This document shows, one piece after another, positions 1-38,755 of a stretch of 64,000 nt of DNA; position 1 is the first letter of the stretch; every line of letters begins with the position of its first letter. A model generated the notes under the pieces. The model had not been told where the DNA came from, searched no databases, and was given only the letters and a program-made list of their open reading frames with translations. Position numbers and translations under genes: made by a program. The DNA comes from Dictyostelium discoideum (Eukaryota). The DNA is taken from the NCBI GenBank assembly GCA_000004695.1, contig CM000151.3, forward strand, positions 2,656,001 through 2,720,000. The letters are read 5' to 3'.

Positions 1-2172
1 TGTCTTCTTTGTAGTGAAAGAGAGTTTTTAGATTTTGTGTTGAAAACGAATTTTACGATGTTATTTTCAATACTATTGTGTTGTGGTGTGGTGTTGATGT
101 AAGTGTGGAACGTTAACTGAGATAGTGCATATGTTTTTGCCATTATGAGTCTGCCCATATAGGTTGATGAAGTTGAGTTCCATGTTACTAGTTTAGCTCT
201 GATGTTGTCTGAGATTGTATTGATTTTGGATTTGATACCCTTATTGTTGAAGTCAAAGCCGAGGTACCTTTCGTTTGATTTTATGACGGTGTATAGCGTT
301 CTGGTGTTCCATTTGAAAGTGATACACGAGCATTTGGTTTGGTTTATTTTTGCGCTGGTTGCTTGGCAAAACTTCTTGATCCATTCATTCATGAGGAAAT
401 GGTCCATAAAGTTGTATGCTATTGTTGCTGTATCATCGGCGAACTGTAGTATTTTAATGGTTTCTTTGGTTACACCATTGATGCAGCGGTCATTTATTAT
501 AGTAGTTGCCATGCATTCAACCACTAATGCGAAGATAGTGGGAGAGATAGGATCACCTTGTTTGGTTCCTCTTTTTGATGTAAAGCTTTTAGATAATGAG
601 TTATTGATGTACACTGATGTTTCTGATTCATTGAGTAAGTTCATTATTGTGAGGACCATTTTGAGTGGTAGTTTTAGATGTGCAAGAGTACGTAGAATGG
701 CGTTATGTGAGATTGAATCGAATGCTTTTTCAAAATCATAAAATGTTATGATTGGTTCCATATCCTCTTTTGTGTTAATCTCTCGTTTTATTATTTCTAT
801 TGTTGAGTTTAAGGTGATGATGTTATCGTGCAGTAGTCTTCTTGGTACGAATCCAGTTTGGAATGGTGAGATTATTTTGTTTAAGAACTTCAGGATCCTA
901 TTGTTGATTATTTTCGAATAGATTTTGTAATCGACATTTAGAAGTGTTATTGGTCTATAATTATCCAGGTTGTTTGGGTCTCCTTTGTTTTTATATATAG
1001 TAATCAATATCCCTTGTTTGAAGTCCTTTGGGATTGTTGTGTTCCAGAAGTGATTGTATAGTTTTGATATTATTGGTAGAATTTCATTAATGTGGTTTTT
1101 GTAAAATGTTGGAAGGAGTCCATCTTTACCAGGTGCTTTTCCTTCTTGTATTTTTTCAATGCCTAGTCTGATTTCATATCCTTCTATTGGTTGATTAATT
1201 TCGTCCAATATCTTTTGATCAATCCTTTTATTGAATGTTTTTAGGAGTTCGTGGTGAGTGTCTTCGTTGCATTCTCTCTTCTGGTACAGGTTCTCGTAAT
1301 ATCTTCTTGCTACTTCGAGGATATCCTCGTGTTTTGTTACCAAACAATTGTTGCTTGGATCTAGAATTTGAGGGATTTCATTTGTCTTTCTTTGGACTTT
1401 TAACCTTCTGGTTAAGTATTTTGATGGTGTTTCTTTGTTGTTGATGTGGGTGTTGGTTTGGTTTGCTTGTTTTATTCTTACTTGTTCCTTTAGAATATTG
1501 TTGATCTCTTCTTTAAGGAAGATTGCTCTTGAATCTTTGGCTGTTTCGAGTTTTTCTGCGAGTTCTTTTAGTTTGTTTTTGGTTTTATTGCTTTCTCTAA
1601 TTTCTATATTAATTGACAGTTTCTTTATTTCATCTTTTAGTTTCAACCATTGTTCGCAAATGTTTAATTTGTACCATTTGCTGGTGTTCTCTTCGAATTT
1701 TTTATTGTAGTATTTAATTGTTTTATTAATTTTGAGGCTGGTTGAATTCATTTTGAGAGTTTCTAGGTTTTGTCTCCATAGTCTTTCTCCTTTCTTTTGT
1801 TGCTCGTATTCTGGTATTTTTAATTCAATGATTACCATGTTGTGATCAGATTTTAATTTGATTTCCTTAGTAGTAACTATTGGGTTTAGATGGAGTATCT
1901 TCTTTGAGACAAAGACCCTATCGATGGTTGATTTGTTTCTTGGAAATGTGATTCCATTCTTAATTTCTGTAAATTCGAATTCGTCGAAGATTGTTTTAAT
2001 ATATTTGTTAAGGTTATTATCCACTGAACAGTCTACATTGAAGTCTCCAGTTATAATATCGCTGTGTAGTATTTCTTCTGTGAGATTTTCCTTATACCAT
2101 TCATGTCTTTCGTTTGACTTTGCTGGGGCATAAATGGTTGTGCATTTGATCTGTGTTTTTGCAATCATCCAT
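1..2172 (-). CDS. TRE5-A-like ORF2 (AP endonuclease + reverse transcriptase), N-terminal ~720 codons only; continues beyond the window start
   Basis: A continuous minus-strand reading frame runs from the ATG at ~2172 down to position 1 with no stop in the window, which is why it is absent from the ORF track. APE motifs sit near 2000-2150. Plus-strand ORFs in 202-2589 are antisense artefacts. Confidence 0.7.
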
Positions 2173-2458
2173 TCGGAAGATATAATTCTTTCGTTTATTG
2201 TTTTTGTTGTTGTTTTTATTTGGGTGTTGATGATGATTTGTGACACCCCTTGTCCTGTTTTATCAATTGGTGCGTGGTGTGTTATTTTGTTTTTATATTG
2301 TTGATTTATTGAGTAAATTTTATTTGTTTTTATATTTGTTTCAGTTAGAAGTGCTGCGTCCAGCTTGTTGTTGTCTAATACGGTGTTTATTATGCTGGCA
2401 GATTGGATGGTGTTGGATCCTTGGACGTTCCAAACACCTATTCTTATTGTGTTTTTCT

Positions 2459-3793
2459 TTATAGTTTTATTTGGGGTAGATTTTTATCTACCTTTTGAAG
2501 TTTCTGGTTTATTTTGTCTTCTAACTGATCTTTACTTTGTTCGTTGTGTTGTTGGTCTTGTGTGTTTGTGGGGTTTTTTGATTTACTGATTTGTTTTAGA
2601 ATTTCCTTGTTGAAGTTGTCTATATCTTCATCCATTTTTGTTTTTATGCTTTTTTGTCCATATTCACCCAATTTTGGTTTGACTGGTGTTTTGTTGGTCC
2701 TGTTTGTTTTGTCTTGTTGTTTGTTTTTTGGTGTGTTTAACAATTTACTTGGTGAATCGATAATTTTCGATGGTGTACCATAGGTTGGGCTGAAACTCAT
2801 GATATGTTTTATTGGAGAGGAGAAGAACCATTGATTTGAAGGGATTGAAAGTGGGAATTCTATTTTTCTTATTGCATCAGTGTTTGGGCTGGTGAAGTCG
2901 AAGATATCATTTACCTCTCTAAGTTTTTCTTCCGTTGTTAGTCTCTTTGTTTCGCCGTGTTGTTTTATTGGTGTATTGTATGGAGATGGTGGTTCAATAG
3001 GTTTTTCTGATTTTGTTTTAATTTCTTGATTGTTTATCGATTGGGTATTGATCTCATTCTCTATTCTTGTTAGTTCATCTACGTTTTCTAGTGATGCATC
3101 TATTACCTTTTGAGCTGTATCATCTAGGGCCATAAATGTTTTATCATTAGATGAGGAGGTGATTGGTGGGATAATGATTGTTCTTTTTCCTTGTTTTGGT
3201 ATTTGTTCTGATGTAGATTGTGGTTGTTGTTCATCTGATTGTTTTTTATTTTTGTTTTCTTCTTGATTTTCTGGTAATGAGGTTTGATCTCTCCATCCTT
3301 TGTTGGAGTGACCAATTAATGTTAGATTGTCTAGTTCAATGATAGTGTCATATTCTTCTACGACTCTTTTCACTGTTTTGATAATTAGAGTTTCGCCTTT
3401 AATTTCAGATTTAATTAGTTTACATCCTTCATTTTCTATTACCCATTCTATTTCTGTGAGTGATTTATACCAATCGAAATCCGTATACATATTTTTTGGT
3501 CTTAGAGTGGTTATAAATTGTCCTTTTAATTCTGCATCGAACATATTTACAAAATAGATTACTGTACTAATACTGTCTGTGAGAATTTTGAATGTATTAT
3601 TACTTTTGATTAAAACATCTTTTTTGTCCAAACTTTTTTCTAAATCTTTTTTTATTTTATCGTCTGGTTCGTGATTGATGTTTATGACGTATTTGAATTG
3701 TTTTTTTTTTAATTGAGTTTTATCCACAATTTCGCTTATTTTTTGTAGGCATTTGTGTTGCTTAATATTTGTGGTGTTGTTTGTGATTTTCAT
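2459..3793 (-). CDS. TRE5-A-like ORF1 protein (444 aa, ~51 kDa)
   Basis: An intact 444-codon minus-strand ORF sits immediately 5' of ORF2. Its size matches the TRE5-A ORF1 protein. It is Lys/Asn/Gln-rich and has no cellular homologue I recognise. Confidence 0.7.
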   Translation of the reverse strand: MKITNNTTNIKQHKCLQKISEIVDKTQLKKKQFKYVININHEPDDKIKKDLEKSLDKKDVLIKSNNTFKILTDSISTVIYFVNMFDAELKGQFITTLRPKNMYTDFDWYKSLTEIEWVIENEGCKLIKSEIKGETLIIKTVKRVVEEYDTIIELDNLTLIGHSNKGWRDQTSLPENQEENKNKKQSDEQQPQSTSEQIPKQGKRTIIIPPITSSSNDKTFMALDDTAQKVIDASLENVDELTRIENEINTQSINNQEIKTKSEKPIEPPSPYNTPIKQHGETKRLTTEEKLREVNDIFDFTSPNTDAIRKIEFPLSIPSNQWFFSSPIKHIMSFSPTYGTPSKIIDSPSKLLNTPKNKQQDKTNRTNKTPVKPKLGEYGQKSIKTKMDEDIDNFNKEILKQISKSKNPTNTQDQQHNEQSKDQLEDKINQKLQKVDKNLPQIKL

Positions 3794-3842
3794 TTTATTT
3801 TCTTTCTATCTTTTATATTTTTCTTTAAAAAGTTAAAAATCT

Positions 3843-5583: not shown

Positions 5584-5666
5584 GCAAGGGTAGGAAAGTC
5601 TGGTTAAATCCGTGTGACTTAAGATCTCATCCATTCGGTTCGCGAGTTCGAATCTCGCCTCTTGCA
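5584..5666 (+). tRNA. tRNA-Leu(UAA), class II (long variable arm), 83 nt
   Basis: The acceptor stem GCAAGGG/CTCTTGC has one G-U pair. The D-stem has 3 bp. The anticodon loop is CTTAAGA (U33, anticodon TAA, G37), and its stem TGTGA/TCTCA has one U-U mismatch. The T-arm is GCGAG-TTCGAAT-CTCGC. The discriminator is A. Confidence 0.8.
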
Positions 5667-6752: not shown

Positions 6753-6824
6753 GGCTCCTTAGCATAGTGGTATTGCGCTTCCCTAGTAAGGAAGAGGTCA
6801 TGAGTTCGATCCTCATAGGAGCCT
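6753..6824 (+). tRNA. tRNA-Thr(AGU), 72 nt including discriminator
   Basis: The acceptor stem is GGCTCCT/AGGAGCC. The anticodon stem is CTTCC/GGAAG with loop CTAGTAA (anticodon AGT). The T-arm is ATGAG-TTCGATC-CTCAT. A weak ex-B-like GGaTCGAtTCtCC sits at 6851-6864. Confidence 0.85.
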
Positions 6825-12233: not shown

Positions 12234-12312
12234 AGTATTTACATCTTTGGAAATAATTGGGCAAAATCTTAATTTTCTATTTTTATATTGAAAAAGGAAA
12301 ATTATTTTATTG

Positions 12313-12386
<74 letters not shown>

Positions 12387-12443
12387 ATTATTATTATTAT
12401 TATTATTATTTCTATTTAGAAAGTTGTATTCATTATCAATCAT
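7113..12443 (-). CDS. Large Asn/Thr-homopolymer-rich protein of unknown function (~1694 aa), 4 exons
   Basis: Model on the minus strand: join(12443..12243, 12158..11942, 11882..11615, 11511..7113). Introns are 84, 59 and 103 bp with donors GTAAAT, GTATGT, GTAAAA and acceptors ending AAAG/ATAG/TTAG. All splice phases are consistent (201+217+268+4399 nt = 1695 codons). The ORF-track 'M' starts at 12140 and 11210 are TTG codons inside exons. The first in-frame ATG is at 12443. No conserved domain recognised. Confidence 0.6.
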
Positions 12444-12506: not shown

Positions 12507-12725
12507 TTTTTTTTTTCCAAAATTAAAAAATAATAAAAAACTAATAAAACAACAACAAATTTTAGTTAGTATACAAATCTGCCAATCAAGCCATTAATGG
12601 TACAACTACGTTATGATTGGTACCACTTATGGTTAAAATAAAATTTCGGTGTAATAAAACCAAAAATATTTATTATTTAATTTAATTTTTTTTTATTTAA
12701 TTTAATTTTTAATTGGTGTTTCATC

Positions 12726-15271
12726 TCATCTGTCTTTAAAAGATTTTAAACCACAAATTAATTTATGATCACTTTGCCAATCAACAGTTTGACAATCACG
12801 ATCACAATAGTTTGTTGTACATTTTGAAGTGCAAATTTTACCACAATTTGCGCATAGCGATGGAGTTGTGGGGCCTTGAATGATCCAATCACAATCGTGA
12901 ATTTTTTGATTATCAAATTTAGAACGACATGTTGAAAAGGCAATAAACGAGTATTTACCACCAACTTTCAAGCTTGAAGGATCGATACATTGACCACCTT
13001 CGACAGCGAATCTACATGGGAAACCTTGGACGTCCCATAAGAGTAATTCGATATCATCACCTCTGACCAACGGTTGAGCGGCGAGTGTACTTGGAAAAAA
13101 CATTTTTCAAAGACAGTTCTAATGTCTGGCATTAGATCAGCCAATGGGTTTGTACCACCTTGATCAAATGAAGACTGAGCAACAAGTTTATAATCCTTCA
13201 TTGTGATTCTTGGATTCTCTGGAAACCCCTTTGAGTAGCCACCATACTCTTTATGTCTAATGAGTTTATCATTTTCATGGTCTTTTAATAATTGACGAAA
13301 CTCTTTAATCACTTGAATTTCTCTAGCAGACTTTTTAACCTTTGCTTCTTGAGCGTTTGCAAATACAAATGGTACTTTTTGATCGAGATCAACCTTTACC
13401 TTTCTTCCCATTTAGATGTGGCTTTCTTTGAGAGATTAGCCAAGATTTGACTTGCTTTACTTGAGCCTTTGATTGAAGCAACCTCTAAATATGTTAAACC
13501 TAATTTACCATTTTTAGTGACATTGATACCTTTGCCATGACCATCAATTTGTAAATACAATTTACCCAATTCAAATGTAGCTTGAACTATATTATTTTCA
13601 CCATCATTATATTCCAAAGATTTTTGAAAATTCTCCAATGCTTTTGAAATGGCAGATGATTCAGATGATTTCAATAATAATAATCTACCTAAATTTAAAT
13701 TTGCTTCACCAATACCAGTATTCATTTTATAACCAGTTGACATTGCAATTGATAAGTTTGTAGCTTTTGTATACATTTGCTTTGCCTTTTATAAATTACC
13801 TTGACTACGATAATAATCACCCATGGGTGCAACGAATACATCAGCAAACACCGTTTCATTTAAACCTTTACTTTTGATTAACATTTTCTCAGCATTTTTT
13901 AAATCTTGATAAAAGAATTTACTTGTCTGTGCAGCTGGTTCATATTCCAATGATGGATTCTTATCGAAGTATTCCCTTCTTTGCTTTACATTTACTTTAA
14001 TCAATGCATCACTAACCAAAATCAATTTCAGGCTCTGATATCTCTGCAGCAAGTTTAACAGTATCCATTTCTGGTAAAGTACCCGCCCTTGTCATATTGG
14101 TAAAACGTTATCAGAATCTATCGGCTCGGTAAATGCTGATTTCTGTTTTGTACCCATTACTGACCTGACGCTATCCTTATACTTTTTATTATTTGGCTCA
14201 AGATCCAAAGCTAATTTATAAAAGTAGGCTGCCTTCTTTGATTTTTCCAATAGTGTAAAACACTTTGCAATCACAGCATACCCCTCTGCCCTGCATGGAC
14301 GAATGTAAAGTAATCTTTCAATATCAGATTTCGCAATATTTAAATGCTGTTGCATTCTAGTCTTCACCTTTTCACACCACTGTAACCAACATTTTCCTCT
14401 TGAAAGGTATAGATCAGAAATGAAATTCTCTGTCAAACCTCTATAATCCAATGCTAATGAATTGAATTGCTGCTTGCCCATTACCTGCTTTAATCATTTC
14501 ATCAGCTTGATACTTATATACCATCGCCTCTGCCATTTCATCTAAATGTGGATAAAGTGGTTTCAACTCCAAATCATCTGAATTATCAGTCCATGAATTA
14601 AGTTGTTTAGTCCAATCTGCAACACTCATAGTTTTATCCAATACAAATATACTCTCAACAACTTTAAGTGTAACTAATTTTAAATGATTCCATGAATTGA
14701 ATTGTTCACTATGTTCACAACCTTCATTACATTTTCTTGATTTTTCAGTTGGTTCTTTATCATTATTTGTATCATAAAATCCCTTTATATATATATATAT
14801 ATATGTTAATACTTGTAATTTTATTATTATTATTAATATTATTATTATTATTTTATATTATATTGTATATATGAATATATACCTCATAAAAATGACTACC
14901 ACATGCTAAAATAATTTCATTTTCATTTTCTAATTGACTTGATGGTATATTTTTCCATGGATGACTAACCTAAACATCAACAAATAGATTGAAATCAAAA
15001 TCAGAAGTACGACCAACTGCTAATTTTTTCATCATTAATTCACTTTTAAGATATCTTAATTTTGTATTTTTAATTAAGAATTCACCTCCAACTGGACCCT
15101 CTTTATATTCTGCATAAGTTTTTTCCCATCTTTCATAAAAAATCTTTCTAAAATTTCTGAATGCTCTATCAGATGAGCCAAACCCTTTAAAAAAAAAAAA
15201 GAAAAAAAAAAAAAAAGAAAAAAAATATTTACTCTGTATTTGAATTTATATTTTTCATCAAGACTAACCAT
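12726..15271 (-). pseudogene. TPR/Sel1-like repeat protein with C-terminal MYND zinc finger, disrupted by at least 2 frameshifts and 3 in-frame stops. Its body has atypical GC-richer composition.
   Basis: Minus-strand ORF segments 14441-14641, 14092-14481, 13789-14052, 13396-13776, 12968-13411 and 12726-13103 abut or overlap without introns. The b/c and c/d segments share a frame but are split by TGA and TAA, and a TAG separates FVDV|VSHPW near 14925. Frameshifts of 1 nt occur near 14460, 13400 and 13100. The C-terminus reads CANCGK..CTSKC..YCDRDCQTVDWQSDHKLIC (MYND). Upstream, AYFYKLALDLEPNN and LGKLYLQIDGHGKGI look TPR/Sel1-like. Codons such as GGC, GCG, CCG, CGG and TCG are frequent (about 38-42% GC against under 30% for typical exons here). 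The 5' exons (15271-15233, 15184-14960, 14882-~14700) are AT-rich with normal 48- and 103-bp introns. Confidence 0.5.
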
Positions 15272-15646
15272 TTTCTTACTGTTGTTGTAGAATTATATGA
15301 ACAATGAAATTTACAAAAAAAAAAAAAAATTTGTGCTAACTAAAAAAAAAAAATAAAAAAAAATAAAAATAAAATAAAATAAAATTAAAAAAAAACAAAA
15401 ATGGCTAAAATATATAAAATAAACAATTAAATTATATTTTGAACTTCTATTTATAATGGCGAGATTTAAGAAAGATTTTTTTTTTTTTTTTTTATAATTT
15501 TTTTTTTTTTTATTTTTATTTTCATTTTTTTAATTTTTTTTTTTTTTTATTTTTTTATTTTTTATTTGATGGTTTAAACAAATATTCAATCTGAAATTTC
15601 AATAATTAATTTGTTTTGAAAACAAAAAAAAAAAAAAAAAAAAAAA

Positions 15647-17138
15647 TGAACCCAGAAATTTTAGAACATAAAAATGAAGATTGGGAATTCATTAAAATTT
15701 TAGGTTCAGATAAAGAAGTACATAAAAAGAAAAATGGTCCCTTAAATGAGTAAATGTATCACTTTGTGTAATTAAAAAAATTGAAAAAGTATGTAATAAT
15801 AATAACGATAATAATAATAATAGTTTTATGTATTAATTTTTTTATTTTTATTTTATTTTATATTTAGGAATTTTTTTTTTCAATTATTGATATTTTAAAT
15901 AAATTAAAAAATTGTGAATATTCAACAAAATATTATGGATTTGCATATGATAAAAATAATAAATTATATATTTATATGGAATATATTGATGGTGCAATTA
16001 CTATAGAAGAGAAATTAAAACAAATTGAAATTGTTCCACAAGATATTATTATTTTATTAACAATCAAAATAGCAGAAGCATTAAGTAAAATTCATGAAAT
16101 GGGTATTATTCATCGTGATATTGGGGTAGTAATATACTTTTACTTGAAAAAGAGAATAATCAAATTCAAATTAAATTTATTGGTTTTGAAAATGCAATAC
16201 AAATTGAAAACAATTCAAAATATAATTCAAGAGTTGGTACAGCTACACATATGGCACCAGAAGTGAAACTACAAGATGGTAATGCAGGTCGTAAATCTGA
16301 TGTATTCAGTCTAGGTTGTACAATAATTGAAATGGCTGGTGGTGATTTAAATAGTACCATTGGTAGAGACGCCAATGGAATACCACCAATACCAGTACAT
16401 TTATCATCAGAATTAAAAATCATCACCCAAAATTGTTTACATTTTAACCCAAAAACAAGATTTAGTATAGATGATTTAATTTCTCATATTAATAAAGAAA
16501 AAGTTAATAAAGACCATTTCTATTCTCCATTTGGGTATATAATACCATCAAATGTAAAAAGGCTTGAAAAAAGAGATGGTGGTGACCAAACACTTACAAT
16601 TGGATTAATTGGTAATGATATAAACTACCTTTCATTTCCATTTTATAATCAAATGATTCCAGTTGGATCAATTCCATCATCAGTAAAATATCTTTTATTT
16701 AAAAAACTTAATCAAAGGATTGAAGATGGATCAGTGCCAGATTCTGTTGAATATTTAGATTTAGGTGATGAATTTGATATTGTAAACAATGGTATCGATC
16801 TTCCAAATGATAGTATTTCAGTGTTAAGATGTGGTTTTAATTTTCAAACACCAATTCATTTAAGAAATTTACCAAATTCAATAACAGATTTACAATTGTA
16901 TAATTATAATATAAATATATTAAAAAATAGTTTCTCATCAAATGTATCATCACTAACACTTGGTTCCAATTTTAATTCCTTTGGATCCCTTAAAAATCTT
17001 TCAAATTTTAAAAATTTAAAAAGTTTAACATTTAGTTTTGAAGGTGTTGAAAGTCAACAACTTATAACTCAAATAATCAATGATTATATACCAAATAATA
17101 TTATTTCTGTAATTATAAATGGAAAACAAAGAAGATAA
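15647..17138 (+). CDS. FNIP-repeat protein kinase-like gene, probable pseudokinase or pseudogene (degenerate catalytic motifs and an apparent 1-nt frameshift)
   Basis: Exon 1 starts at ATG 15647 (MNPEILEHKNEDWEFIKILGSDKE), and an intron of about 150 bp ends at the acceptor at 15868. The kinase hinge YMEYIDG is present. The catalytic loop reads HRDIG (Lys replaced by Gly), then shifts frame at ~16126 to SNILLLEKENNQIQIKFIGFENA (DFG replaced by GFE) ... GTATHMAPEV. The C-terminal 240 aa are FNIP-type repeats, characteristic of Dictyostelium. The first-intron donor phase is also ambiguous. Confidence 0.5.
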
Positions 17139-23134: not shown

Positions 23135-25639
23135 ATGAAATTATTATCTCAATTTATTTCTATAATAATTATATTTTTAATAATATTTATAAGTGTAAAT
23201 AATTCTCAACAGCAGCAACAAGAAGAAGATATCATTGCAGAGGAAGAACCAAATGGTATACCAATTAATTTGAATATTATATTAATCGGATTCGATGGTA
23301 ATGGTGCATTCGAATATAATTTACCACCAGAAACCTTAAATGATCTTTTAGTTGAAACCTATCCAATTCATTATGTACATTCAATATTCGATTCAAATTA
23401 TTTAAAACCATATAATAAAGATGATGACAACAACAATGGTAATGCCAATAATAATGATGATATAGAAAAAGATAATATTGGTAAAAGATTAATTTCACAC
23501 TACGATTTAAAATACAATGTAATATCATCAAATAGAATCTCATTAGATTTATATGAACAATTATTGCAAATCAATATGAAACCAATTGAAAGCGCAACTC
23601 CATCACATGATGGTGAAACTCATTTAGTTGAAATTGAAGTTTTAGAATCTTATTTTGATAATGAAATTACAAAGATTAAATCATCATCAACTAACTCAAA
23701 TAAAGATTATAGTATAATATTTATAAATCCATCAAAAGAGAGAATATTAACAGGTAGAGCATTAAATAATAATGATAAAACAGGATTGGGAGAATTTAAA
23801 TATCAGTATAGTAAAAATGGTCAAATCACATCACCATGTTGGATAGGATCATCAAGATTCATTGTTATAGATTTAAGTGCAGGTCCATTGAAATATGGTA
23901 CAACATTACATAAATCATCTGATGAATACTATTCAGAGGGTTCAATTGGCCATGACTCAATACCAAGACTAATTGAATACTTTGTGAAGGATGGCTACAG
24001 CGGCACTTCCATTCAGGGTGCATCACCAATCGAAATCATCTCTCATATGTCTTCTTTGGTGATTACCAGTATTCAAAATGTGTTTTTACAAGATTGCAAA
24101 TTCAATTATGTACCATTATTTCAAAAGATTTTAATACCAATTCTAATTTTCAAAGATTCATCCTCTGTCAATGTCCAAAAGGATTTACTAGATTTAGAAT
24201 TAATTAAAAGACAATCCAAAAAGGTATTCCCATTCTCCACGGTTGAATTTGTATTTGCAGAACATTCAATACATGAACATAAACATATTTCAATGGCATT
24301 TTCAAAATCAATTAAATCTCATTCCTCCTTTGAAATGAATCCAACCAATGGTAAATTCTATTCAGTTAGAAAGAATTATTTAGATAGTAAAGAATTACTA
24401 TTATCACTAAAACAAGAAGATGACATTTTAGCAAGTGGTTTAATTGGTAATGATGTTTCACAAATTCCATTAAGTTTAAAAGTTTCAAATAATAATAATA
24501 ATAATAAAAATAGAAACTCACCAACACAAAAATCAAAAATTTTACCAGTTTATATTTTTGCTTTAACATCATCATCAACAAATAATGATACAAATAATTA
24601 TAATAATTTATTACTTGATAAATATCATTCCTATGCAAGTAATCAAGATGCAATTGTTGTTTTAATGTCAAATCATACATATAATAGTACATTTTATAAA
24701 GGTAATTTACCGGTACAAGTGAATTCACTTTATTCAGGTACAAGAAATATTATTGCTGGTTTAGGTTCATCTCAAGGTTTACTCGGACCAACTTTACATT
24801 ACTCTGAATCTCATAATAGGTTGGTAAATAATTTCTTATGGAGTTTTGGTTCATCACCTTGGAATTTATTCAATGGTCGTTCAAATGATGCTAGTAATGC
24901 CTTCACTGGTGGTAGTGGTGATATCTCTCAAATCTTTATCGATGCAATCATTCGTAATACCATTATAACTTCAATTCAATCATCTGAACATAATTTAAAT
25001 TTAGCATTGAATGAAATCACTAAATTCTCTTCAAAATATTTAATTGATTCATTAGGTTTTGAAATTGAAGATATCTCTTTGAATAAAGGTAATTTCATAA
25101 TTGATAGACTTTATCATACTCCACCTTCGAAATTACCAATTTTAAAATCAATTGTACAAAGATTACATAATGATTTAGAACAAATTACAAATGAAATTAC
25201 AAATCAAATTAAATCAATACCTTCTTATTTAAATTCAAAAGAATTAACATCGTATGTTATTTATTTATTTATTTATTTAATTAATTAAATAATAATAAAA
25301 TTACTAATTATATATTATTATTTTTATAGTTCACAAAAAGATAAAATTTCACAAGATTTGATAATGGTGGCAACTCAAGTTGTTGGATTTTTAGATTATG
25401 TTCATAAAGAGATATCAAATGTTGAAACACAATTACTTTGTTGTGCAATCACTCATGGTAATTCAAATAAATCTGGTGGTTTCTTTGGTAATAATCTAAA
25501 TATAATAGTTGTTGTCGTTGCAATCATTATCTCTGCAATAGTTATTAAAATTGCAAATGAACAAATATCAAATGATAAAAAGCCATTACTTATTAATAGG
25601 AATAGAAATAGAATTAGATCAAAAATAAATACAAATTAA
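23135..25639 (+). CDS. Type I transmembrane glycoprotein of unknown function (~808 aa), 2 exons
   Basis: Model: join(23135..25251, 25330..25639), with a 78-bp intron (donor GTATGT at 25252, acceptor TATAG at 25329, phase 2 consistent). The N-terminal signal peptide is MKLLSQFISIIIIFLIIFISVNN. The second exon encodes the single TM helix IIVVVVAIIISAIVIKI and a short basic tail. Confidence 0.65.
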
Positions 25640-37103: not shown

Positions 37104-38755
37104 TTATAAAATCAAAGATAATAGTACAAAAAATGTAAATGAAACATAAGTAATTGAGACAATTGATGAGCTTGAATCTGAGTCTGAATCTTCATGTTGA
37201 TGTTTTGATTCACTTCCTAAATTATCAACAGGGAGTTGTGTAGAAGATTCAGAGGTTGATGTCGAAGATTCTTGTGAATTGGTTTCAATTGATGAACTTT
37301 CTGTTGGATTTTTAGTTTCAATTGGAGTCCCAATATCTCCAGAGCTTTCATCAGATGAAGTCGAGATAATTGGAATATCTTCTGAATTTTGATTTTTGCT
37401 TGAGGAATCAGTTGCTGGGTTATCACTAGATAATTGAGTGTTACTTCCAGATGTATCTGATGGAGTTTCAGAGGTTTCATCAGATGATCTTGGATTAGAA
37501 GTATCCAACGAATCAGATGGGATACTGGTTTCTGATGAAGCTTCAGAAGGAGTTGGGGTAGAGGTCTCAGTTGGAGTTACTGTTTCAGAAGGATTTGGGG
37601 TAACAGTCTCGGTTGGGGTTGTACTCTCGGATGGGGTTGGAGTAATAGTATCGGTTGGAGTTACTGTTTCAGTTGGGGTTGGAGTTACTGTTTCAGTTGG
37701 GGTCGGAGTGGCAGTTTCGGTAGGAGTTACTGATTCAGTGGGAGTTGGGGTTGTAGTCACTGTAGGAGTTGGGGTTACTGTTTCGGTTGGTGTTGGAGTG
37801 GCAGTCTCGGTAGGAGTTGGAGTTTCTGTTTCAGTTGGAGTTGGAGTGGCAGTCACTGTAGGAGTTGGAGTTACTGTTTCACTAGGAGTTGGAGTTGCAC
37901 TCTCAGTAGGAGTTGGAGTAACAGTCTCAGTTGGTGCCGGAGTAGTAGTCACAGTAGGAGTTGGAGTTACTGTTTCGGTGGGAGTTGGAGTTGCACTCTC
38001 AGTAGGGGTTGGAGTAACAGTCTCAGTAGGAGTTGGAGTAACAGTTTCGGTTGGTGTTGGAGTAGTAGTCATTGTGGGTGTTGGAGTTACTGTCTCAGTG
38101 GGAGTTGGGGTAGCACTCACAGTTGGAGTTGGGGTAACAGTTTCAGTTGGAGTTGTTGTTGGTGTTACGGATGCACCTAGAACCCATCCAGAACATGAAG
38201 ATGATTTAGAAACTTGTAAAAAACCTGTTTCAGGATATCTATAAGTTTTTGAACCAGTGGTTTTTACTTCGTAGTAATATGCTTGGCAAGCGACATAAGT
38301 GGAAGTTGTAATATAAGCACCAGAGCTTGCAGTTCCATAAGTTCTTGATAAAACTTTTGAGGTTCCGTCACCAAATACCAATGACATAGTTGAAACACTA
38401 TCGGTAGTACTATAAAATAAAACAATGAATTGTGGATTACTTGTTACCCAAGTATGAAAGCCAGAATAAATTGGATTTGTTGGTGAATTACAATTACCTT
38501 CATTGAAATCTTGGGTCCAATATTGAGTATAATCAGATCCAGATTTAGAATAGTAACCAACACCTAATGTTTTATAATCACTAGACATAATGGAAGAACG
38601 ATGTCCATCGCTACTTGATTTATCATTAGCACATTTACCACCAGTTTCATCACATACCAACATTTTAATAGCTTCAAGAGCATCTGTACCAGCTGCAATA
38701 TTTTCTGACATTGCACCATTTGAGCCTTTACATGTAATAAATTGATTAAAACGTC

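Follow-up and report, generated by a model that had tools for sequence, protein, structure and literature searches.

A disrupted TPR/Sel1–MYND gene at its ancestral locus on chromosome 2 of Dictyostelium discoideum AX4

The window analysed here comprises 64,000 nucleotides of chromosome 2 of Dictyostelium discoideum AX4 (contig CM000151.3, 2,656,001–2,720,000), and its minus strand holds the remnant of a gene that is still intact in a sister lineage. The DUF7906 protein encoded nearby matches its D. discoideum AX4 counterpart at 100% identity. The locus is very probably a unitary pseudogene, that is, a non-processed copy which decayed in situ, and its oddity in GC3 and codon usage was inherited from the ancestral gene. 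The dead gene is a native dictyostelid TPR/Sel1–MYND gene and not a foreign import. Inactivation of the AX4 copy looks recent, within loosely bounded timing; the gene has presumably lost its function here, and relaxed selection is the likely cause of its decay.

A first-pass annotation had described long open minus-strand segments coding for TPR/Sel1-like repeats and a MYND finger, broken by all three stop codons and several changes of frame. Analysis of positions 12726–15271 revealed such segments of 85–147 codons in three frames, as well as the three stops and the frame changes. The computed chance of a 100-codon open run is about 4e-4, with approximately 7.6% stops expected per codon at the local composition. 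TPR_1 (32.1 bits in the window translation, cut-off 27.8) and zf-MYND (25.6 bits in the window and 26.1 bits in the intact ortholog, cut-off 22.7) exceeded their Pfam thresholds, while Sel1 gave only a weak Pfam match (16.6–17 bits, below the cut-off of 30.7).

Intact ortholog, synteny and lesions

The conceptual translation of the window matched P0001 (ACTFIW_011930, a hypothetical protein of 819 aa) with E = 0, 88% identity and 100% coverage. P0001 belongs to assembly GCA_054859355.1, which is labelled D. discoideum and is diverged from AX4. The two loci resemble each other in exons, introns, GC3 mosaic and neighbours (FNIP kinase, a 1211-aa gene, DUF7906 and p450), and their identity amounts to 88–91% at the protein level and approximately 95% at aligned coding positions. 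The 22.7-kb ortholog locus (L001) was collinear with positions 25286–5729 of the window at about 84–92% DNA identity, flanking genes included. With approximately 20 kb of collinear flanks and both introns at the same positions as in L001, the AX4 copy is retained at the ancestral locus and is not a retrocopy. The frame of P0001 is intact over 819 codons, whereas the AX4 copy carries six frameshift deletions (1, 5, 1, 8, 7 and 1 nt), three nonsense codons (TAG, TAA and TGA) and five in-frame indels. Exon boundaries were taken over from the gene model of L001, which on splicing translates exactly into P0001, and base-by-base alignment of the window against the intact ortholog located the lesions (Table 1). 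The first of the frameshifts closes the spliced frame 49 codons in, so that no full-length product should be possible.

Table 1. Features of the AX4 remnant in window coordinates, from the 5' to the 3' end of the gene.
Feature	Position	Strand	Remark
Whole gene remnant	12702-15271	-	Syntenic, intron-retaining ortholog of 819-aa ACTFIW_011930
Exon 1 remnant	15233..15271	-	ATG + 12 codons, MVSLDEKYKFKYR; undamaged; protein identical to P0001 residues 1-13
Intron 1 (GTAAAT...AAAG)	15185..15232	-	48 nt; position as in ortholog, 68 nt shorter in AX4
Exon 2 remnant	14883..15184	-	Three lesions (alignment to ortholog)
1-nt frameshift deletion, exon 2	15177	-	Spliced frame from ATG ends after 49 codons
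3-nt in-frame deletion, exon 2	15113	-	Alignment to ortholog
Nonsense TTG>TAG, exon 2	14972-14970	-	Alignment to ortholog
Intron 2 (GTATAT...AAAG)	14783..14882	-	100 nt; position as in ortholog
Exon 3 remnant	12702..14782	-	Five frameshifts, two nonsense codons, four in-frame indels
TPR module, three repeats, P0001 residues ~195-330	14143..14545 (approximate)	-	Profile vs PDB; TPR_1
Candidate 31-nt mini-intron of first-pass annotation	14454..14484	-	Coding in L001 (GNEQAAIQFISL); GN/AI/L conserved in H. album
5-nt (TTCAT) slippage frameshift deletion	after 14462	-	Alignment to ortholog
Stretch between 1-nt deletion (14095) and 8-nt deletion (14030)	14030..14095	-	True frame encodes TRAGTLPEMDTVKLAAEISEPE
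Sel1-like repeat region, P0001 residues ~408-580	13402..13923 (approximate)	-	Profile vs PDB; weak Pfam Sel1
Nonsense GAA>TAA, codon 451	13789..13791	-	Alignment to ortholog
7-nt frameshift deletion (AAAGAGT)	directly 3' of base 13404	-	AX4-specific vs both L001 and L002
1-nt frameshift deletion (G)	directly 3' of base 13091	-	AX4-specific vs L001 and L002
MYND zinc-finger remnant	12753..12854	-	zf-MYND 25.6 bits
9-nt in-frame deletion in MYND finger	after 12829	-	Second CxxC pair CTQKCSKC -> CTSKC; H. album keeps CSKC
Nonsense TGG>TGA, codon 812	12726..12728	-	8 codons before ancestral stop
Ancestral TAA stop	12704-12702	-	Alignment to ortholog

The alignment also moved several landmarks of the first-pass annotation. 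The TAG was present, but it lies at 14972–14970 and not near 14925, and among the 1-nt shifts placed near 14460, 13400 and 13100 only the last (13091) is of 1 nt, the other two being deletions of 5 and 7 nt. A TGA between two same-frame segments had been read as nonsense; it is an out-of-frame artefact of the 64-nt stretch between a 1-nt and an 8-nt deletion, which sum to 9 nt, and a tblastn HSP at 14095–14027 in a different frame matches the shifted stretch. The 5' exons were not clean, as exon 2 has the 1-nt deletion at 15177, and the apparent terminal TGA is a nonsense codon that falls early.

A further assembly (GCA_054859385.1; locus L002) carries P0002 (ACTFIR_009569) at the same locus and in the same synteny as AX4; the identity of the protein to P0001 is 97% across the C-terminal 346 residues. 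L002 lost the gene in a different way from AX4: one deletion of 1.66 kb at the 5' end, with 7 nt of filler, took away the start codon together with the promoter-proximal region, exons 1–2 and the initial third of exon 3; the 3' part that is left retains an open frame. This loss is independent of the AX4 loss, and the gene is therefore dispensable in this clade. Three allelic states thus occur in the D. discoideum complex, namely intact, 5'-deleted and multiply disrupted. Relative to both L001 and L002, the four indels of the 3' 1 kb are AX4-specific. With its lesions polarised against an intact ortholog and an independent loss in a sister lineage, the locus is a clean case of gene death, which could be used in indel-spectrum and gene-loss studies of the D. 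discoideum species complex; beyond annotation its importance is small.

Homology, exhaustive-representative and profile searches recovered no AX4 protein of this TPR/Sel1–MYND family, and a translated search of the window DNA revealed no second copy within the 64 kb. The loci of D. citrinum and D. firmibasis that were reached via the DUF7906 ortholog lack synteny on the side where the gene would lie, and no trace of it was detected in the stretch from D. citrinum.

Reality and age of the lesions

A number of the lesions fall within or close to short repeats or homopolymers (the TTCAT repeat and A runs), a placement that would suit sequencing or assembly errors in an intact gene. Such errors are nevertheless an extremely unlikely explanation. 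The region 12600–15400 was 100% identical in assembly GCA_054883475.1 (L007), which elsewhere shows 11 mismatches to the window and 30 gap positions in 23.7 kb; these differences suggest that it is independent of the AX4 reference. Moreover, deletions of 5–9 nt and three base substitutions are among the lesions, a spectrum atypical of homopolymer errors. As a second assembly that differs elsewhere is identical over the region, the lesions are real.

The probability that the gene is alive through programmed frameshifts, stop readthrough or mini-introns is close to nil. The first-pass annotation had offered a 31-nt GTAATG..TTAG candidate (14484–14454), the removal of which together with the 5-nt deletion gives 36 nt and restores the frame, and in a near-identical assembly an automated pipeline has forced a gene model of 641 aa through the locus. 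However, the candidate is conserved coding sequence and, at 31 nt, falls well short of the gene's own introns (48 and 100 nt), and its splicing would repair only one of the nine disabling lesions. These nine are independent and of varied kinds with no common motif; none is found in L001 or L002, and the ortholog reads through each site. The product is truncated at codon 49 by the first lesion, and the deletion in the MYND finger alters the ligand spacing. Annotation should record the locus as a pseudogene and regard the 641-aa automated protein model as spurious. Judging from the sequence, a fragment may be expressed from the AX4 locus, the candidate being a predicted 125-codon ATG ORF at 12726–13103 (minus strand) which includes the MYND remnant.

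The comparison of AX4 with the intact ortholog gave a pairwise dS of 0.122 and a dN/dS of 0.32, against dN/dS values of 0.12–0.38 in four neighbouring live genes. The AX4 branch received 18 synonymous and 28 nonsynonymous changes (effective omega about 0.38), which was indistinguishable from the neighbouring genes or from the other branches (omega about 0.44, with only 14 changes). The substitution pattern thus contained no measurable relaxation, which fits a recent death and allows no finer dating than that. Together, the nine disabling lesions and a dN/dS no higher than that of the neighbours bear out the earlier description of a recently inactivated gene.

Composition and family distribution

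The body of the gene had been described as 38–42% GC, rich in CGN, GCG, GGC and CCG codons, and the most anomalous coding region of the window. Its GC content is indeed higher, and its codon use less typical, than in neighbouring genes, but GC was 0.34 over 12702–14460 and 0.315 over the whole span, and 0.40–0.44 was reached only in 200-bp peaks at 12851–13250. The GC3 of the body was 0.25, compared with 0.08–0.22 in the cellular genes of the window. On a codon index, codons 1–180 were typical (0.765), and codons 181 to the end scored 0.53, lower than any of the 19 cellular ORFs that served as reference in the window (0.58–0.78). A GC of 0.40 or more is likewise attained at eight further sites in the window. 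The compositional oddity of the body is real but moderate, and it is exceeded by the retrotransposon ORFs at 3–3805 (GC3 0.26–0.36, codon index 0.37–0.48) and by a Thr/Pro-repeat gene at 37.1–38.7 kb that reaches 0.49 GC. The supposed codon richness was not borne out either: the body of the intact ortholog contains few such codons (CGT 5, GCG 4, GGC 5, CCG 2), and AGA, GGT, CCA, CAA and AAA dominate.

The same mosaic was present in the intact syntenic ortholog, where the corresponding parts had codon indices of 0.756 and 0.509; codons 1–180 were typical, and codons 181–420 and 541–720 atypical. The mosaic consequently predates the AX4/ACTFIW split and is unrelated to the decay. This bears directly on the proposal, which we regard as very unlikely, that the body came from a GC-richer foreign source not long before inactivation, through either horizontal transfer or ectopic conversion. 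The contrast between typical codons 1–180 and a body below every reference ORF, together with the patchy distribution of the family, would be expected from a foreign source. However, the compositional transition occurs inside exon 3 at no plausible junction, the usual D. discoideum codons are still dominant in the body, and a recent, AX4-specific acquisition is largely refuted by the mosaic shared with the intact ortholog.

The homologs point the same way. The first-pass annotation had proposed homology searches with the conceptual translation to decide between amoebozoan and foreign relatives; the closest and the only full-length homologs were dictyostelid, and they are collinear over the seemingly native and the atypical parts alike. 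Heterostelium album PPL_08368 was collinear with P0001 over residues 2–814 (E 2.9e-122). This protein and its paralog PPL_08366 (MYND-type domain-containing, UniRef D3BI00) are full-length, collinear and 34–36% identical, and they share the N-terminal domain, the TPR, the putative Sel1-like repeats, the beta-rich region and the MYND finger. As in D. discoideum, the bodies of the H. album paralogs are GC3-richer than their neighbours (0.44–0.47 vs 0.23–0.34). They differ in belonging to a distant dictyostelid group and in genomic context, and both are intact; the two copies lie in a cassette, duplicated in inverted orientation, that also holds H-lectin and B-box genes. No full-length homolog was found beyond the dictyostelids among 1.84 billion representatives, and in this exhaustive search the family was carried only by H. 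album and the D. discoideum complex. A word-indexed protein search missed P0002 and P0003; the exhaustive representative and profile searches recovered the homologs. The two full-length homologs in H. album make the family dictyostelid and not foreign, and the composition, being common to the intact ortholog and the homologs of H. album, is an old family trait without a recent foreign signature.

Domain architecture and distant relatives

The ancestor would have been a three-exon dictyostelid gene for a scaffold-type protein of about 820 aa, comprising an N-terminal helical domain, a three-repeat TPR module, Sel1-like repeats, a beta-rich region and a C-terminal MYND finger. Selection on the gene presumably lapsed in the AX4 lineage, which has since accumulated point mutations and small deletions, some of the deletions through slippage at repeats.

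The three allelic states, the patchy distribution and the GC3 excess in two distant lineages would also fit a fast-turnover family of the conflict or immunity type, in which TPR, Sel1 and MYND come after a degenerate DZIP3-like HEPN domain and which was repeatedly gained, duplicated and lost in dictyostelids and owes its GC3 excess to lateral spread or GC-biased conversion rather than to ordinary vertical descent. We consider this unlikely. The relevant comparison is P0008 (749 aa), a DZIP3/hRUL138-like HEPN plus TPR protein with a near-threshold match to HEPN_DZIP3 (PF18738), which scored 25.6 bits where the cut-off is 27; TPR and Sel1 repeats come after it. The N-terminus of P0008 aligned with P0001 residues 20–104 (BLASTP E 4e-7), and unlike the dictyostelid proteins it has no MYND finger. 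The N-termini of P0001, P0003 and P0048 gave no match to PF18738 even at E <= 10, and inspection of the alignments revealed no catalytic Rx4-6H motif in the dictyostelid proteins where P0008 has RNKATQH. Membership of the dictyostelid proteins in HEPN_DZIP3 is thus unsupported. Literature on Dictyostelium MYND pseudogenes, on the HEPN-TPR-MYND architecture and on the new assemblies yielded nothing relevant.

For the native dictyostelid family, profile comparison gave only repeat-level likeness to co-chaperone TPRs (SGTA, HOP/STIP1 TPR1, Hip and RPAP3, at P0001 residues ~195–330) and to bacterial and eukaryotic Sel1-repeat proteins (~408–580), with E values of 1e-14 to 1e-8. None of the SGTA/HOP-type or Sel1-repeat proteins has the N-terminal domain or the MYND finger of the family, and by eye the Hsp70/90 'carboxylate clamp' residues seem not to be conserved in its TPR module. 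Among PDB sequences, the family profile matched SGTA (E 9e-14), HOP (E 5e-11), the Sel1 repeat proteins 6ok3 (E 1.5e-12), 8sxq and 6ork, and the MYND domains of ETO/DEAF1. An AlphaFold2 model of P0001 built on a four-sequence alignment had a mean pLDDT of 49 and a pTM of 0.29, and only the region of the TPR module reached pLDDT 70–89. The MYND finger of P0001 retains a complete C4-C2HC ligand pattern (C767, C770, C778, C781, C786, C790, H799 and C803).

Domain content and orthologous locus

Long open segments, spread over three frames, follow one another on the minus strand between 12.7 and 15.3 kb, with stops and frame changes between them. Stop codons are expected in ~7.6% of random codons at the local composition, so the six abutting open runs of 85–147 codons on this one strand are not due to chance, and homology to the intact protein P0001 settles this. 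Pieces of the pseudogene translation matched the Pfam families TPR_1 (32.1 bits), zf-MYND (25.6 bits), and weakly Sel1, in agreement with the broken TPR/Sel1 and MYND chain described in the first-pass annotation.

The concatenated conceptual translation revealed one strong match, P0001 ("hypothetical protein ACTFIW_011930" of Dictyostelium discoideum), an uninterrupted protein of 819 aa with 88% identity at 100% coverage, which is exactly the translation of a three-exon model of its locus L001. This 22.7-kb locus (GCA_054859355.1) was collinear with window 25286–5729 at about 84–92% DNA identity, and the DUF7906, 1211-aa, FNIP-repeat kinase, ~1700-aa, and P450 genes were common to both. By this comparison, L001 is the orthologous locus in a diverged lineage and not a paralog. 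The DUF7906 ORF of the window (23135–25285) shared 100% identity with a protein of D. discoideum AX4, which places the window on AX4 chromosome 2. Four neighboring genes showed dS values of 0.07–0.15 between L001 and AX4, far above expectation within one species; thus, the "D. discoideum" label of GCA_054859355.1 probably covers a deep lineage.

Both GCA_054859355.1 and GCA_054859385.1 (locus L002), labelled D. discoideum, differed from AX4 by ~8–15% in overall DNA, and L001 from L002 by ~5–8%; they resemble deep lineages or cryptic species more than ordinary strains. In D. citrinum, synteny with AX4 was kept to the right of DUF7906 and broken just upstream (window ~23013), and the block of the 1216-aa gene, FNIP kinase, and TPR-MYND gene was not adjacent in this species. 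The same break was seen in D. firmibasis, as judged from the gene list alone.

A family profile compared with PDB sequences revealed, in the ancestral protein, an SGTA/HOP/Hip/RPAP3-like TPR module of three repeats (residues ~195–330, E down to 9e-14), Sel1-like repeats (residues ~408–580, E 1.5e-12), and an ETO/DEAF1-like MYND finger (residues 764–808). Since each of these modules serves protein interaction, the intact protein was most likely a scaffold or adaptor. The N-terminal ~195 residues matched no Pfam family. Residues 20–104 aligned with the N-terminus of P0008, a distantly related 749-aa TPR/Sel1 protein (BLASTP E 4e-7), whose HEPN_DZIP3 score was near-threshold (25.6 bits vs a cut-off of 27). 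The Rx4-6H motif was absent from the dictyostelid family proteins, and the AlphaFold model (pLDDT 49) was too poor for judging the N-terminal fold; kinship to HEPN_DZIP3 may serve as a lead only.

Lesions and timing of inactivation

Lesions were catalogued by global alignment of the pseudogene locus to L001.

Lesions and introns of the pseudogene, from alignment to L001 (deletion coordinate = last minus-strand base before the gap)
Feature	Position	Strand
Intron 1	15232-15185	(-)
Frameshift deletion, 1 nt	15177	(-)
In-frame indel, -3 nt	15113	(-)
Nonsense substitution TTG>TAG	14972-14970	(-)
Intron 2	14882-14783	(-)
Frameshift deletion, 5 nt, one TTCAT repeat unit	14462	(-)
In-frame indel, -3 nt	14150	(-)
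Frameshift deletion, 1 nt	14095	(-)
Frameshift deletion, 8 nt	14030	(-)
In-frame indel, +3 nt (CCC)	13827-13825	(-)
Nonsense substitution GAA>TAA	13791-13789	(-)
Frameshift deletion, 7 nt	13404	(-)
In-frame indel, -3 nt	13352	(-)
Frameshift deletion, 1 nt	13091	(-)
In-frame indel, -9 nt	12829	(-)
Nonsense substitution TGG>TGA	12728-12726	(-)

Both introns retained their GT..AG ends and positions. The 5' exons are not free of damage: with the 1-nt deletion at 15177, the spliced frame stops after 49 codons. In essence, the earlier description of the breakage holds, but it missed some lesions and misplaced others: the segment-splitting TAG exists, at ~14971 instead of 14925, and the frame changes read as 1-nt shifts exist, although two are the 5- and 7-nt deletions. 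A TGA placed between two same-frame segments is an out-of-frame artefact and no substitution; the flanking 1-nt and 8-nt deletions sum to 9 nt, and the true frame between them encodes TRAGTLPEMDTVKLAAEISEPE. The apparently terminal TGA (12728–12726) is itself premature, by 8 codons relative to the ancestral stop. Through the 9-nt deletion, the MYND finger has CTSKC in place of CTQKCSKC at its second Cys pair, with CSKC kept in Heterostelium album.

Recoding, with removal of a 31-nt GTAATG..TTAG mini-intron (14484–14454), had been offered as an alternative and is rejected. The stretch is coding GNEQAAIQFISL in the ortholog, with some residues conserved in H. album. Its removal would offset the neighboring 5-nt deletion only, and eight further disabling lesions would remain.

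Indel errors were checked against a second assembly, in which window 12600–15400 occurs exactly (L007, GCA_054883475.1). Over 23.7 kb, this assembly departs from the window elsewhere by 11 mismatches and 30 gap positions; the lesions are therefore not sequencing errors. Polarity could be assigned in the 3' 1 kb of the gene using L002 as a third lineage. All four indels there were unique to AX4, and unique substitutions numbered 46 on the AX4 branch (18 synonymous, 28 nonsynonymous), 10 on the L001 branch (4 and 6), and 4 on the L002 branch (1 and 3). In L002 itself, 1.66 kb has been deleted, with 7 nt of filler; the missing part starts 32 nt before the ATG and reaches about codon 472, and the leftover 3' frame is still open. 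On this three-way alignment, the close lineages hold two independent inactivations and one intact copy.

Pairwise comparison of pseudogene and ortholog gave dS 0.122, dN 0.039, and dN/dS 0.32, inside the range of neighboring live genes (0.12–0.38). The AX4-branch omega of about 0.38 was clearly below neutrality, indicating that constraint lasted for most of the branch; on a rough estimate, the neutral phase would occupy at most about a fifth of it. Neutral divergence of about 1–2% would accommodate the three nonsense changes and eleven indels. The proposed recent inactivation is therefore reasonable on these rates, with timing loosely constrained.

Automated annotation called a 641-aa "protein" over the pseudogene in L007 (5208–7753, window ~12728–15273), with spurious introns skipping the lesions, and the 347-aa P0002 model (ACTFIR_009569) placed an invented start (MQIHNIFHF) on the L002 remnant. 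A ~375-bp A/T-homopolymer-rich spacer (15272–15650) separates the pseudogene ATG from the divergent FNIP-kinase gene; this promoter region, shared by the two genes, is also conserved in L001, so transcription of the pseudogene may persist. A long (AAT/ATT)n tract directly downstream (12300–12420) yields ORFs of poly-Asn or poly-Ile/Tyr in several frames, typical of Dictyostelium simple sequence.

Codon composition and family origin

Composition was compared with 19 cellular ORFs of the window (GC3 0.08–0.22), from which a CAI-like index was built (0.58–0.78; mean 0.695, SD 0.055). In the AX4 pseudogene, codons 1–180 had an index of 0.765 and GC3 of 0.12, and codons 181–end 0.534 and 0.25, with the index down to 0.42–0.44 at codons 241–360 and 661–720. 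The compositional claim is half right: the GC-richer usage noted at first is real in the body, and the usual D. discoideum codons AGA, GGT, CCA, CAA, and AAA still predominate.

A body recently acquired from, or converted by, a GC-richer source is not supported either. The intact ortholog has the same mosaic (codons 1–180, index 0.756, GC3 0.08–0.15; 181–end, 0.509, mostly 0.17–0.40) and is slightly GC-richer; L001-to-AX4 differences comprised 66 G/C-to-A/T vs 44 A/T-to-G/C changes. Both H. album paralog bodies (GC3 0.44–0.47) also exceeded their neighbors (0.23–0.34). From this shared mosaic and the H. album values, the compositional oddity was inherited as a trait of the family.

Nine regions of the window reached a 200-bp GC of at least 0.40, and the pseudogene is not the most anomalous coding region, being exceeded by retrotransposon ORFs and a Thr/Pro-repeat gene. 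The non-LTR retrotransposon (3–3805, minus strand) runs off the window start; ORF2 matched RVT_1 (E 2e-33) and weakly Exo_endo_phos, with ORF1 upstream at 2462–3805, and both are more atypical than the pseudogene (GC3 0.26–0.36, index 0.37–0.48). Because tRNA-Leu(taa) (5584–5666) and tRNA-Thr(agt) (6753–6824) lie nearby, it may be a tRNA-targeted (TRE-type) element. The other gene (37104–38711, minus strand) encodes a (TPTPTETV)n protein with a C-terminal hydrophobic tail and has the highest GC in the window (0.49 at 37501–38000), owing to amino-acid content and not GC3 (0.16).

Whether the closest homologues were amoebozoan or foreign was answered by an exhaustive HMMER scan of 1.84 billion representatives. 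The only two strong matches were dictyostelid: P0002 and, from H. album, the 857-aa PPL_08368 (E 2.9e-122), which is collinear across residues 2–814. The remaining matches covered the TPR or MYND module only; PPL_08366, the other H. album paralog, came from a profile search, and the databases searched contained no AX4 protein of this family. As sampled by these searches, the family is dictyostelid, old, and patchily distributed. Taken on its sequence, the locus is very probably a unitary pseudogene of the ordinary kind, left by a native dictyostelid TPR/Sel1-MYND gene that died recently in the AX4 lineage.

In H. album (GL290990.1, L008 7398–21940), the two paralogs, 68% identical to each other, lie in an inverted duplicated cassette of H-lectin (122 aa), TPR/Sel1-MYND (890 and 857 aa), and B-box (638 and 639 aa) genes.
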